The position numbers were made by a program, and so were the translations under genes. Under the pieces are notes generated by a model that ran no database searches, was not told the DNA's origin, and saw only the letters and a list, made by a program, of their open reading frames with translations. Shown in pieces: positions 1,582-14,803 of a DNA stretch of 64,000 nt; position 1 is the stretch's first letter; every line of letters begins with the position of its first letter. Source of the DNA: Candidatus Bathyarchaeota archaeon (GTDB taxonomy: Archaea > Thermoproteota > Bathyarchaeia > Bathyarchaeales > Bathycorpusculaceae). The stretch lies in assembly GCA_963777155.1 (NCBI GenBank), contig CAVZPM010000039.1:32001-96000 (forward strand), in the 5' to 3' direction.

Positions 1582-1608
1582 TGGGGTTGTTGAACAGTTA
1601 TGTTTCGT

Positions 1609-1726
1609 CTGCCGGTCAAAGGGCACGGGTTCCACCTGATCCCATTCCGAACTCAGAAGTTAAACCGTGTTCCGTTCCCAGCTGTAGTGTGGTCTTAGGC
1701 CACGTGAACCTGGGAAAGCTGGCAAC
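1609..1726 (+). rRNA. rrf: 5S ribosomal RNA (stand-alone)
   Basis: Conserved CCCATTCCGAAC...GAAGTTAA core; helix I TGCCGGT (1610-1616) pairs with GCTGGCA (1718-1724); ~118 nt; T-rich tract downstream. Confidence 0.93.
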
Positions 1727-1799
1727 ATTTTGACTTGTTTTTTCAGGGCAGTTTTTCTGGGTGATTTAGCATATCCTTATAAGGGTCTGAGAATAGTTT

Positions 1800-9242: not shown

Positions 9243-10388
9243 TTACCGTTTAACGTGGTATTGTTCGATTGTGTCTTTGGCTTTTTCCCGTCGTTCCTGA
9301 TGTTGCTGCAGGAAAGCGTTGAGTTTTTCAGCAATGTCTTTTTTGCATTCGCCGCAGAGCATTTCGCCGCCTTTGCATCGGCGTTCGCGTTCGGCAAGTT
9401 TTTGGTTGTCTTCTTCGAATAAGAAGAAGTAGTATTGGAAAATGCTGCATACTGTTGGGTCGGCGCCTGTTTTGCGTTGTTCCGCAGCGGTGCCTTTACC
9501 GCCTGTGAAGGCATTCCATATCTTCTTTTTTACCACGTCTGGTTGGTCGGTGGTAAATATGCTTGTTTCAGGCATTGACGCACTCATTTTTCCACCTGCA
9601 CCAAGACCAGGGAGGAAGCGGCAATGGATTTGCGCGGGTTTGTAGTAACCGAGTTTTTGAGCTATGTCACGTGTTACTCGCCAGTAGGGGTCTTGGTCGA
9701 TAGCGGCTGGGATAAGTGCTGGTACGTTTTCACCAGTGAGTTTTTTATGGATAAAGCATGGGGCGGCTTGGATGGCAGGCCAGAAGACCCAGCCGATGTT
9801 GGTGCTGTCTTGGAAGCCAAAGCTGCTGCGGGCTGTGCTGTAGGTTATGCGTTTGGCAACTTCAAGGGTGATGTCGTAGAGTAGATCGATGTCTTTTGTG
9901 TCATAGATTATGAATGTGTCCTCGGGCTTGAATCCTAGAGCGATAAGGTCCAGCGCGTTTTCGTAGGACCACTTTTCAGTTTTTTTGAGGTCAGCGTTGT
10001 CGCTGATTAGGTATTTTTCGTCGTCTGTTATTTGGAAGTAGAGACGCGTTTTGAATTTTTGTTGAATATGCAGAGTGAATATCCACGGAACAAGATGTCC
10101 AATATGAACGGGACCGCTGGGTCCTCTGCCCGTGTAGAGCACAAACTTGGTGCCCTTATCGTATAAGTCAAGGACGGTATCGAGATCGCGGTGACTGAAG
10201 AAAATCTGTCTTTCCAGTTGGAGATGAAGTTTGTCTGTGTATTTCTCCACGCGGTTTAGAAGTTGGGGTGTGAGGGGTTGAGTGCCGAACTCTTTAATGA
10301 GACGTTGGTAATCCACTTTGCCCTTAACTTCCCAAGGAGTAACTACCATTTCATTGTTGTTCTCTTCAGCGTTAGCCGTTGTATTCAC
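9243..10388 (-). CDS. trpS: Tryptophan--tRNA ligase (archaeal type)
   Basis: VTPWEV, YTGRGPSGPVHIGH, DQDPYWR, KMSAS. Confidence 0.97.
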   Translation of the reverse strand: MNTTANAEENNNEMVVTPWEVKGKVDYQRLIKEFGTQPLTPQLLNRVEKYTDKLHLQLERQIFFSHRDLDTVLDLYDKGTKFVLYTGRGPSGPVHIGHLVPWIFTLHIQQKFKTRLYFQITDDEKYLISDNADLKKTEKWSYENALDLIALGFKPEDTFIIYDTKDIDLLYDITLEVAKRITYSTARSSFGFQDSTNIGWVFWPAIQAAPCFIHKKLTGENVPALIPAAIDQDPYWRVTRDIAQKLGYYKPAQIHCRFLPGLGAGGKMSASMPETSIFTTDQPDVVKKKIWNAFTGGKGTAAEQRKTGADPTVCSIFQYYFFLFEEDNQKLAERERRCKGGEMLCGECKKDIAEKLNAFLQQHQERREKAKDTIEQYHVKR

Positions 10389-10481
10389 CAGTACCTTTTA
10401 CAAGAAAGGTACCGTTTGCTGATATATGTTTTTTCCACTCAAGATATATTTGAAAACAAAATGTGTTCTGTATTCATTTTT

Positions 10482-10625
10482 CAAAGAATTAGCCCAAAAG
10501 GAAGAGTTAAGCGAACCAAGCCATGCGCCCGCAGGATAGAAGCCTAAAAAGGGCAGGGGTGGGCAACAGCTTTCTCCTGCTAGGAGCTAGATTCGCTCAA
10601 CTTTTGTTGGCTATCCTTTGCATTC
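10482..10625 (-). ncRNA. Candidate rod-shaped structured ncRNA (or MITE-like inverted-repeat element)
   Basis: ~35-40 nt imperfect inverted repeats (10482-10521 / 10586-10620), inner stem GCAGGA/TCCTGC, three G-U-compatible arm differences on the minus strand, TTATAT box at 10652-10657. Confidence 0.5.
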
Positions 10626-10749
10626 CTACTTACTGGTAACCTGCTGGATGGATATAAGATAATGTTGGTTACAGCTTGATGCAACAACTGGGAATAAACT
10701 GGCTCTTTAAATGAGTAGTATTTGAGGCTTTTTCCATTTTTCTTTTAAA

Positions 10750-12468
10750 CTACAAGTAGGCGTCGGTTACGTATCGGCGCATCATGCGGTGGCTATTGAA
10801 GTAGTAGGCTATCTTGCCGATGGAGTTTTTCATCATCTTTATCCATTCGTCATGTCTATCGTAGAACATCGGAGTGATAACGTACTCCAGCTTGTTATAG
10901 AGGTCGTCAGCTTCTTTCTTGAAGAGCGTTTGGTTGTCCAAGTTTTCGACGTTTGCGGGTCCAATCGACCAGCCTGTAAGGTTTTCCATCCAACCTTCCA
11001 TCCACCAGCCATCAAGAACGCTTAGGTTGATTACACCGTTGTGCGCAGCTTTCATTCCGCTTGTTCCCGAAGCCTCCATTGGTCGAAGCGGCGTGTTAAG
11101 CCAAACATCAACACCAGAAACCATCTTGGCAGCGATGCCCATATTGTAGTCTTCTAAGTAAACTATTTCGATGTCTTCTTTGAGTTGTTTAGCGTAATTG
11201 TAGATTTGCTCTATGAGTTTTTTTCCGCCTTCGTCTCGGGGGTGAGCTTTGCCAGCGAATATGACTTGGAACTTTCCTTTTCTGCTTATCGCGCGAAGTC
11301 TGTCAAGGTTAGAGAACAGTAGGGTGGGTCGCTTGTATTCGGTTGCTCTTCGGGCAAACCCAATAGTAAATATGTCTGTGCTTAGGTTAGCGTCTGTTGC
11401 CTGGTTAGCGTAGTCTATTAAGATCTTTTTTTGTTCCTCGTGGGCATGCCAGATTTCGCAATCAGGAATAATGTCAACTTTAGCTAGCAATTCTGGCTCA
11501 ATCGCCCAGCCTGGCAGGTACTGGTCATAGATTTTTCGGAAGTTTTCCCCTGTCCAAGTAAACGAGTGAACACCATTGGTTACCGCGTGAATTTCGTAGC
11601 CTGCAAACATTTTGCTGGAGATTTCCTGATGACGTTTAGCGACGCCGTTTACATACTTGCTTAAGTTAAGTGCGAGGCAAGTCATGTTCAGTCGGTCACA
11701 GCTGCCATATTCCTTTAAGGTGTCTAAATCGCCTACTCCTAGTACCTCAGCAACCAGGTCATAGTTGAATTTGTCATGTCCAGCTTCAACAGGTGTATGT
11801 GTTGTAAAAATGCATAGTTCTCTAACTTTTTCCGGATCTGAATCGTTTTTCCGTAGTAGCTCAACGGCTAGAAGGCTGGAGTGTCCCTCATTCATATGGT
11901 ATTTTCTTACCTTGAAGCCCAAGGCATCAAGCATTCTGACTCCGCCAAAACCCAAAATTGCCTCCTGTTTCAGTCGGTAGCTTTCGTTTCCGCCGTAGAG
12001 GTAAAAAGTTATTTCTCTATCCTCCGCTGTGTTTCCATCACAATCGGTATCGAGAAATAGGACTGGAACTATTCCTCCTGTCACACTTTGGTACTTATAG
12101 ACCCATGTCTTAACTTTTACACTGCGCCCCTCTATCTGGACATGGACTTCGTTTGGGGCAAGGGTCATGAATTTCTCGGGGCTCCATTCACGTGGTTGCT
12201 CTGTTTGTCTTCCGTCCTGATCGAGTTTTTGCCTAAAATAATTTCGTTTACTGATTAATGTCACAGCGACAAGGGGAAGCTTTAGGTCGGCGCTGGAACG
12301 GATGGCATCTCCTGCCAATGTGCCTAATCCACCTGCGTATGTGGGGATATCGCTGGTTAACCCTACTTCCATAGAGAAATAAGCTATCTTCTGACCTTTC
12401 AGTACACCCTCCAAATTATCCATCGATTTTTCCCCTCTCATTTCTGCTAACGGTGCGCCCCTCACCAT
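10750..12468 (-). CDS. glgP: Alpha-glucan phosphorylase
   Basis: YFSMEVG, YAGGLGTLAGD, HMNEGH, FARRATEYKR, EASGTSGMK; start may be ATG 12423. Confidence 0.95.
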   Translation of the reverse strand: MVRGAPLAEMRGEKSMDNLEGVLKGQKIAYFSMEVGLTSDIPTYAGGLGTLAGDAIRSSADLKLPLVAVTLISKRNYFRQKLDQDGRQTEQPREWSPEKFMTLAPNEVHVQIEGRSVKVKTWVYKYQSVTGGIVPVLFLDTDCDGNTAEDREITFYLYGGNESYRLKQEAILGFGGVRMLDALGFKVRKYHMNEGHSSLLAVELLRKNDSDPEKVRELCIFTTHTPVEAGHDKFNYDLVAEVLGVGDLDTLKEYGSCDRLNMTCLALNLSKYVNGVAKRHQEISSKMFAGYEIHAVTNGVHSFTWTGENFRKIYDQYLPGWAIEPELLAKVDIIPDCEIWHAHEEQKKILIDYANQATDANLSTDIFTIGFARRATEYKRPTLLFSNLDRLRAISRKGKFQVIFAGKAHPRDEGGKKLIEQIYNYAKQLKEDIEIVYLEDYNMGIAAKMVSGVDVWLNTPLRPMEASGTSGMKAAHNGVINLSVLDGWWMEGWMENLTGWSIGPANVENLDNQTLFKKEADDLYNKLEYVITPMFYDRHDEWIKMMKNSIGKIAYYFNSHRMMRRYVTDAYL

Positions 12469-12577: not shown

Positions 12578-13752
12578 TTATGTTGTTGGCGCTGGTCGGG
12601 TTCCTAAAACAACGGTTACTGAGGTCTGCGAGTTTCCTCTGACCACTGTCATAACTAGGCTGTCTCCTGGTAAGGTGTTTTCTTCTAGGTAACTGGCTAA
12701 GTCATCGTTGTTTTTGATAGTTTGCTGGTTTACAACAGTTCCGTTTGATCCCTGTAGTCCCATGGCTATGATGATGTCGTTGGCTTCAAGTTTTCCTGCT
12801 GAAGGTCCTCCAATTGAAATTGAGGAGATTCTTCCAACCGTAAGTTACGCTAGCGTTTGATTGTTGTGCTGTAGTGTAGTCCATGTCGGTTCCCATGACG
12901 CCGAGGTATGAGTGGCCATGGTAGGATCCTGTGCTGATTAATGCTGAGACTTCTCTTAGTATGGTATCAGTGGGGATGGCAAAGCCTAAACCTTGGGAGT
13001 CAGAAACGATGGCTGTGGTTATGCCTACTACGTTTCCAACAGCATTTAACAATGGACCCCCAGAGTTTCCTGGGTTTATTGGTGTGCTGGTTTGGATTAT
13101 GTTGGCGATTGCATATCCTCCTGCAGTATCCTCCGTTATGGTTCTTCCTGTGGCACTGACAACACCCGTAGTTAGTGATCCTACGAGCCCATACGGGTTT
13201 CCTATGGCGATTACTGGTTCACCAACACTCAATGAAGATGAACTAACGATTGTAAGTGGCTTAAACTCTGAAGCTGGGGCATTAGAGGAAACGGAAACAA
13301 CAGCTAAATCAGAGTACGGGTCGGTTCCAAGAACAGTGGCTGAGTAGCCATGTCCATCGGAGAATGTAACGCTTAGACCGGTTGTGCCCTCTACAACATG
13401 GTAATTGGTTAGCACGACGTTTCGACCAGCAAAATTATATATGAAACCTGATCCTTGGACGCCACCGCTGCTGGTGGTGCCTTGAACCAGAACCACTGAA
13501 GATCGAACATTAGCATAGATTTCTGCTAGCGAGGTTCCATTTTGCACTATGTTGATGTTTTGGGTGGTGGCGTTTTGGAAACCTCTGAGTTCAGAAATTT
13601 GGCTCTGTAAAAAAGAAACTTGACTGTTTATCTTTGAAACCTGCTGGTATTCGACTAAGGAAAATCAGCAGTCCTCCAACTAGCAATCCTGCAACGAATA
13701 GTAGTACCAGGATGCCTGCTGAGGCTTTACTGTAGCCTTTGGACGTAAACAT
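12578..13752 (-). CDS. htrA: HtrA/DegP-like trypsin serine protease with PDZ domain (two apparent +1 frameshifts)
   Basis: TNYHVV, SDLAV, GNSGGPLL catalytic motifs; TM N-terminus from ATG 13752 (MFTSKGYSKASAGILVLLFV) joins after an extra base near 13660; PDZ part joins after an extra base near 12833. Confidence 0.85.
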
Positions 13753-13797: not shown

Positions 13798-14803
13798 CTA
13801 TGCACGGCGGTCTATGAGGTCTAGGGCGTCTGGTCCAGTGCCGATGAAAACGATGGGTACGCCTGTTCGGGTTTCAGCTTCTTTTATGAAGTCTTTGGCT
13901 TCTTTGGGCAGATCGCTGTATTTCCTTGCGCCTTTGCAGCTGGGATATATGCAGTCGAGCTTTGTCATCGCAGCTTGGGTTGCACCATTTATTTTTGCTG
14001 TCTTCTTGGCTAAGTCAAAGTCGAAGGGTGCACTGCGGCGATCACGACCAGTTCCAGCTGCAACCTCAAACCACCCTCTCTTCTGGGCTTCTTCCTTGGT
14101 TATTTCGCCTGGCAACGGTCCAGCGCCCACCCTTGTCATGAACGACTTGTAAACGATAATTACGTCATCTACCCTTGTGGGTCCCACGCCTGCCTCTGAA
14201 GCAATGGCAGACGCTCCCGTGTCTCTACCTGTAACGTATGGATAGCCTCCGCCTAGAAACAATGATAACATAAAGCCCTGAGTGCCTTCAAGAAGCACTT
14301 TTTTGCCTAAATCCAAGCCGTCGTTTACTTCAGATACTTCGTCGGCAAGGAATGGTTTGAGTTCAGGGATGTCTTTGGCAAGTTTAGCTGTGCGCCTTAC
14401 GCGTTCTTCAAGGGCTGGTCCAACACCCCACCCTGTGGTTCCTATGCCCTTGTTGACAGTGCTTGCCTTGTCTTGGTCGCTGTGTTTTTGCTCGATAATG
14501 GAGGCGTATTGATCTATGCCTACTGCGTTTTGGGTCGACTTGGGTAAGTTCCATTTCTTTGAAGAATTGTCCAACATGAACGTTTGCACCTGCGGCTATG
14601 AGGAGGCGTGTTTTTGGGTTGATGAAGGCTGCTGGAACCATGTGGAGGGCAAATTTTTTGCCTTCATACCATATGGTGTGTGCTGCGTTAACTGAGCCTG
14701 TTCGAACGCAGAAATCAAGGTTATCTTTTAGGGCTAAGTACGAGATTATTTTTCCTTTGCCTTCGTCTCCCCAGAAGGCGCCTACAATTACTGAGCATGG
14801 CAT
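13798..14803 (-). CDS. purA: Adenylosuccinate synthetase (short archaeal type; one apparent frameshift near 14525)
   Basis: GAFWGDEGKGK and NAAHT in one frame; GTTGWGVGPA, EGTQG, YPYVT, TKLD in the next. Confidence 0.93.

Follow-up and report, generated by a model that had tools for sequence, protein, structure and literature searches.

The sibling small RNAs of Listeria known as LhrC are encoded in multiple copies and induced by stress, with a shared promoter element and CU-rich sites (PMC4132741). Among archaea, the loop of Methanosarcina sRNA154 masks a ribosome-binding site (PMC5867862), and the intergenic Haloferax rancRNA_s194 acts on translation (PMC6104027). A literature search returned no description of regulatory RNAs in Bathyarchaeia or of the regulon reported here; two 2026 non-coding atlases do not name the class in their main text, and their supplements may hold the family as an unnamed cluster.

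Here we describe a previously undescribed archaeal multi-copy small RNA that is tied to a candidate general-stress operator, giving this lineage a structurally supported RNA family together with that candidate. The starting point was a hairpin in a 64,000-nt stretch (32001-96000) of contig C39 of a Bathyarchaeota genome (G000), hereafter the window.

The hairpin and its gene family

The rod lies on the minus strand between two genes of the same strand, taken from the ORF list: upstream, 10750..12468, presumably glycogen-phosphorylase-like and not recurring among the copies described below, and downstream, 9243..10388, which from its HIGH and KMSAS motifs we take to be trpS. Both are its neighbours only. 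The initial annotation had described a rod of about 140 nt whose arms, at 10482-10521 and 10586-10620, differ by three transitions that become G-U pairs on the minus strand alone. The sequence bears this out, and it also holds the inner helices, the C-rich loop (10545-10567), a TTATAT box and a separate TATA-like box for trpS (10422-10427). When both strands were folded, the rod at 10482-10620 appeared on the minus strand (z = -3.33) but not on the plus strand (z -0.17). A wider stretch gave -2.49 (minus) and -0.47 (plus), the core at 10503-10603 gave -2.56 (minus) and the predicted transcript -1.43.

The full length of the rod holds for this copy, but conservation covers a shorter RNA. In this copy the outer arm, formed by 10482-10495 and 10607-10620, folds well (z = -3.0), whereas family-wide its mean z is about 0 (101 copies) and the matching GGCT word occurs in 8 of 28 related tails; only this copy and a few relatives have it. 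Its 3' side (10482..10495, minus) pairs here with the leader but lacks conservation and probably lies beyond the end of the RNA. Likewise, the T tract at 10452-10462 that had been put after the 3' arm gives way to a conserved 3' signal directly after the stem, the U tract at 10496-10504.

Elsewhere in the window, a 5S rRNA gene occupies 1608-1727 (+); probe words for 16S and 23S were not found in the own assembly. Two genes, which we assume to be adenylosuccinate-synthetase-like (14408-14803 and 13798-14589) and HtrA-like (12786-13547 and 12578-12763), are each split over two frames, probably by assembly frameshifts.

A covariance-model scan of the locus returned no Rfam 15 family at gathering score (best E 6.7) and ARAGORN found nothing there; the early impression had been that this does not look like a tRNA, 5S, SRP RNA, RNase P RNA or C/D guide. 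Guide features are not general among 102 copies, either for C/D guides (C box in 0, CUGA in 19) or for H/ACA guides (ANA box after the stem in 22; GA flanking the upper stem at its two strands, as in a K-turn, in 26). By BLAST the own genome has 1 copy; 17 of 36 genomes from the same genus contain homologues, and none of 24 genomes of other families does. With a covariance model of the hairpin, copies were found in 47 of 60 same-genus genomes, at least 1 to 14 in each (median 3) and three in G000; because the best 62 candidates per genome were scored, these counts are possibly low. This copy is matched at 10494-10605 with an E of 1.4e-22, being itself part of the training set. In a class-wide draw the model matched 3 of the 15 genomes that belong to the family and none of the 135 outside it, and a second model added only weak matches in genus g26 (2 of 4); its short match in G092, a 50-nt hairpin, was dropped. 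In the GTDB genome collection an exact pattern of the 3' arm occurs 45 times: 44 matches are in records titled Bathyarchaeota or Bathyarchaeia, and the remaining one is on a contig of 4.7 kb assigned to a bacterial bin, which is probably mis-binned. The family extends beyond what the models detect, since in several complete genomes without a model match (G008, G081) the same promoter is followed by rods that have diverged further. The hairpin is one copy of a multi-copy small-RNA gene family absent from Rfam, whose orthologous copies hold synteny across species and whose pairs covary.

Covariation supports the fold. In an alignment of 28 sequences 87.6% of cells were paired and 16 of 29 pairs showed two-sided changes, against controls that ignore the relatedness of the sequences: 0-1 of 500 shuffles scored as high, and slid alignments reached 26-48%. 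Among 108 model-aligned rows, two-sided changes affect 23 of the 29 pairs, in a set that is fitted to the model, leans towards it and includes six opposite-strand self matches. G-U cells outnumber A-C cells about 4:1 (498 vs 125 in 102 copies), so that the strand is fixed, which points to selection on the RNA.

The conserved rod, delimited by covariation, model and folding, spans 10505..10602 (minus, about 95 nt). A 13-bp basal helix is followed by one variable pair or mismatch, a 4-bp helix with fixed G-U pairs, a 4-nt bulge on the 3' strand, the upper helices and the loop. The bulge (GCAU here, 10523..10526, minus) comes from the alignments, its length in the large one being partly set by the model. 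In the 108-row set, the first wobble pair is G-U in 84 rows, A-U in 9 and G-C in 7, and the second is U-G in 76, U-A in 3 and unpaired in 25; such rare conversion to Watson-Crick pairs is as expected of a recognised shape. Basal-stem columns mostly carry 1.3-2 bits (a few 0.75-1.2) and loop columns mostly less than 1 bit, save for the C run and the U run of this minus-strand apical loop, which was located by folding. The stem is the most conserved part of the RNA and the loop is among the least. Loops are 72% C+U, with a mean of 20 nt and an unpaired probability of 0.83.

From the distance to the TATA box, transcription is predicted to start at 10627 or 10626 with a purine-rich single-stranded leader (10603..10627, minus). 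Leaders average 25 nt, 68% purine and an unpaired probability of 0.70; they are kept among orthologues and differ between paralogues. The pyrimidine/U tract on the minus strand, present after the stem in 93 of 102 copies, is the predicted 3' end, making the RNA about 132 nt. Leader-loop and leader-tail pairing showed no covariation, and ORFs inside the transcript region vary in length among copies.

The copies sit in varied surroundings: 224 neighbouring ORFs fell into 148 clusters, with no recurring neighbour gene. Of 118 copies, 59 are followed by a gene on their own strand and 57 by one on the opposite strand, while 2 have no gene downstream; trpS takes this place in 9. Since the neighbours vary, the RNA is not a leader of trpS. 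Covariation, strand bias, promoter conservation and the random orientation of neighbours together give good support to the proposal of a small RNA gene with a transcript of its own, transcription being what these features predict, and we consider it very probable that this is a real RNA gene. Three RNA runs have small word shares for the locus, and an RNA-library contig (depth 3.5) covers 10378-10606, reaching from the beginning of trpS to within the rod, in which RNA and DNA, and the ends, are indistinguishable.

Certain copies have settings of their own. L135/L075 (G001) and L139/L123 (G014) lie divergently, 1-2 kb from a 16S rRNA gene, in two genomes where the 16S and 23S genes are unlinked. 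Members of one subfamily (L027, L030, L031, L076, L079, L107 and L112) lie directly behind a stand-alone Lrp/AsnC ligand-binding-domain gene, the two having been duplicated together.

A promoter box and the genes behind it

The TATA box proposed at this locus (TTATAT, 10652..10657, minus) stands without a purine-rich BRE in front, in a spacing conserved among homologues. The initial annotation had overlooked a 24-bp imperfect palindromic box of the TGT...ACA type at 10663..10686 (minus), 5 nt further upstream. In archaea, an operator that replaces the purine-rich BRE suggests an activator site; the box occupies that very place and is accordingly a predicted one. Box and TATA, 5-6 nt apart, precede 101 of 117 copies vs 42 of 1595 ordinary genes. 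A weight matrix of the box yielded 26 matches in G000 vs 1 in a shuffled genome. A strict pattern was found 15 times in G000, 14-22 times in five relatives and 0-3 times in controls, yet only 2-6 times in some same-genus genomes; outside the genus it gave 11 matches in G169, 5 in G163, 4 in G052 and 0-3 in other genomes. A scan for bacterial promoters and terminators found nothing, as one would expect of an archaeon. A suspected likeness of the box to the RosR site found no confirmation, PMC4287449 giving a different motif.

Protein families behind the box include KGG, GT4, bPH, GYD, PEBP, a TFS paralogue, a lone Lrp ligand-binding domain and receiver domains, from a Pfam scan in which 12 of 24 proteins had any match, some of the 24 deriving from single, possibly chance, box matches in distant genomes. 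Small zinc-ribbon proteins are also among the candidate regulon of the operator. A conserved protein of about 90 aa behind the box (L214:1580-1861; C18 and C31 in G000) has no Pfam or Atlas match; it occurs in 11 of 151 class genomes, box-bearing ones included, with 5 copies in G169.

Dodecin marks general stress or stationary phase in other microbes. So do KGG repeats, according to their Pfam description. To avoid circularity, genes for both were found by family search first and the box was sought afterwards: it preceded 6 of 9 cases vs a background of 22 of 2104 genes, with a test window of 350 nt and a background window of 200 nt. Each of 4 genomes has one box-bearing KGG gene. The small RNA is thus probably co-regulated with stress genes, "stress" resting here on Pfam names, and the 24-bp box, a candidate general-stress operator linked to the RNA family, may define a general stress regulon in genus g1 and in G163, G052 and G169.

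Other candidate rod RNAs lie behind the same box, in G000 (C35:1466(-), C8:20116(-), C8:19945(-), C36:72042(-), C25:21007(+) and C37:21048(-)) and elsewhere (L222, L215, L192, L236, L239 and L240). Many share a CCCUCUCUCUUCC-type loop and some are in tandem; one type makes up the 5' region of a TFS-paralogue gene. Possibly these rods and the studied RNA form one superfamily.

Protein binding, base pairing and other readings

The reading that we rank first, with a probability of roughly 0.4, is that of a stand-alone, multi-copy small RNA of a stress or dormancy regulon which acts through protein binding. A dimeric activator would bind the 24-bp box and recruit the basal machinery to a TATA box that has no normal BRE. 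The predicted transcript of about 130 nt would then fold into the rod seen in the covariation, and its basal stem, fixed G-U pairs and 4-nt bulge may form a handle for one specific RNA-binding protein. Under stress the RNA would titrate or carry that protein, with copy number setting the dose. The variable leader and the C/U-rich loop may tune each copy and, more speculatively, the U runs could bind Lsm. In base-pairing small RNAs the seed is usually the most conserved part. Here stem, wobbles and bulge are kept while loop and leader drift, which points to protein binding and leads us to rank pairing of the loop with ribosome-binding sites second. Stem conservation could also stem from gene conversion between copies, which is suggested by two copies in one genome with like promoters and leaders and different upper stems. 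A search of five genomes (90-100% complete) found no Ro60/TROVE gene, and a search of five genomes for RNase III found none. If the stem is a protein handle, the family points to an unknown archaeal ribonucleoprotein.

A possible, somewhat less probable, explanation is that these are sibling base-pairing small RNAs of the LhrC/RsaE kind, in which, under stress, the open C/U-rich loop would cover purine-rich ribosome-binding sites on many mRNAs, the stem serving only to hold and protect it. Two marks of such RNAs are present, namely several homologous copies with a shared regulator site and an accessible C/U-rich single strand, and the CCCUCUCUCUUCC-type loop is common to other rods behind the box. 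Shine-Dalgarno words in the own genome are purine-rich (AGGAG, AAGGA, AGAGG and GGAGA), and pairing of the loops is stronger at start windows than at windows upstream (82 of 84 loops) or within coding sequence (77 of 84). The earlier idea that the loop could pair with Shine-Dalgarno regions is thus possible by base composition, but only 35 of 84 real loops outscored shuffled versions of themselves, the best start-region targets of this copy's loop were no better than shuffles, and no conserved mRNA target emerged for a loop that is itself so poorly conserved. A perfect match in some genomes between the loop and release-factor mRNA at the GGQ codons was rejected, these codons varying freely and independently of the loop in 56 genomes.

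The leader fared no better as a guide. Long-guide matches in the own genome were unremarkable; genus-wide pattern counts stayed near the reversed control, the best matches being the RNA genes themselves; and comparison with 16S, 23S, tRNA and SRP RNA yielded no consistent site. One 9-pair 23S match and one gapped match at z = -5 were taken as chance, and as Shine-Dalgarno mimics leaders did no better than shuffles. No base-pairing target survived the controls. These negative tests are weak, since low-complexity pairing of C/U with A/G would fail against shuffles even if real. Should the loop mask ribosome-binding sites, the family would be an archaeal counterpart of the Gram-positive sibling small RNAs; pairing by the loop and protein binding by the stem are not mutually exclusive. 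As a separate observation, the full SRP RNA gene of G061 is followed at a distance of about 600 nt by another, incomplete copy limited to the S domain (L244, G061:C5:22058-22174).

A broader picture, which we regard as rather unlikely in its entirety, would make the family the RNA branch of a hitherto undescribed general-stress programme in archaea. A single activator would serve KGG, dodecin, other small stress proteins and up to 14 modular RNAs; the stem would load a dedicated protein and swappable leaders and loops would aim it, one subfamily at the 23S rRNA beside the P-loop, halting translation or transcription in dormancy.

The 23S lead can also be taken alone, as a ribosome-targeted RNA whose loop, in the trpS-linked subfamily, restrains assembly or activity of the large subunit; we judge this improbable. 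Eight such loops form 13-14 contiguous pairs just 5' of the P-loop, at what we take to be the 3' strand of helix 75, with p values of 0.003-0.03 against shuffled loops and 0.01-0.03 against shuffled rRNA, and most other loops of this type keep a core of 9-10 pairs. The eight, however, are one inherited sequence, and pairing was non-significant for 16 of 24 loops of the trpS-linked type and for 70 of 70 others. The loop in the window has an insertion and reached p 0.12 against shuffled rRNA, at a different site. Moreover, the rRNA site is identical in three genomes, giving no covariation signal to read. Haloferax supplies a precedent for a ribosome-binding small RNA (PMC6104027).

Slightly less probable still is a decoy resembling 6S RNA or Ms1, to which RNA polymerase or TBP/TFB would bind in stationary phase, the first form of which was among the initial suggestions. 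The long rod, the stress-type regulon and the TFS paralogue behind the same box fit such a role, but the conserved structure has no two-sided central bubble, which argues against a mimic of the 6S type, there is no Rfam match, and genomes hold up to 14 diverged copies.

On a par with this decoy we place a selfish or neutral repeat without RNA function, either MITE-like or a copied promoter-plus-terminator unit. Its 1-14 dispersed copies would suit a repeat, as would the sequence that copies have in common, which in many cases runs from the box to about the U tract. Yet the covariation is strand-specific and orthologues keep their synteny; tallies of end offsets place the ends of close duplicates at varying distances beyond the core (0-17, 80 and 97 nt), and about 10 copies inspected by eye showed no target-site duplication. 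The MITE alternative raised at the outset thereby gains no support, the fixed ends, terminal inverted repeats and target-site duplications of such elements not being found. Viral contigs gave no match to one 5'-arm pattern.

Weakest, and very improbable, is a trpS cis leader (T-box-like) or the antitoxin of an opposite-strand type I toxin: although trpS follows 9 copies and a hydrophobic frame of 26-38 codons lies opposite this one, the varied neighbours and orientations give no fixed position 5' of related same-strand genes as in T-box or riboswitch leaders, trpS has its own TATA-like box, and the antisense peptide was rejected because its frame is not conserved in 20 homologues (frames 8/7/5, lengths 8-42 aa), leaving no conserved opposite-strand small ORF.

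Comparison with described RNA classes

Y RNAs combine a conserved stem bearing a bulge with a variable pyrimidine-rich loop and a 3' U tract. The Bathyarchaeia RNA resembles them in all these features and in being multi-copy, with a negative Rfam scan. It differs in its 5' single-stranded leader, in the Ro60-binding word (0 of 102 copies) and in the TROVE gene (0 of 5 genomes). 6S RNA and Ms1 are rod-shaped too, and a setting in stationary phase or stress is likely for the Bathyarchaeia RNA as well; unlike them it is shorter, has many paralogues and lacks both the central bubble and an Rfam match.

Among archaeal intergenic small RNAs, Methanosarcina sRNA154 and sRNA41 are alike in kind; in the passages on them, PMC5867862 mentions no paralogous copies, whereas the present RNA is multi-copy, has no Rfam match and shares no target with them. 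Haloferax rancRNA_s194, likewise intergenic, differs in being expressed mainly in exponential growth (PMC6104027). LhrC (PMC4132741) is similar in its several homologous copies, shared upstream element, stress context and C/U-rich loops. It differs in that no target was found here and, in sequence, the relation was compared via Rfam only; the promoter in Bathyarchaeia is an archaeal TATA promoter, one long rod takes the place of the two small hairpins of LhrC, and conservation is highest in the stem instead of the loop.
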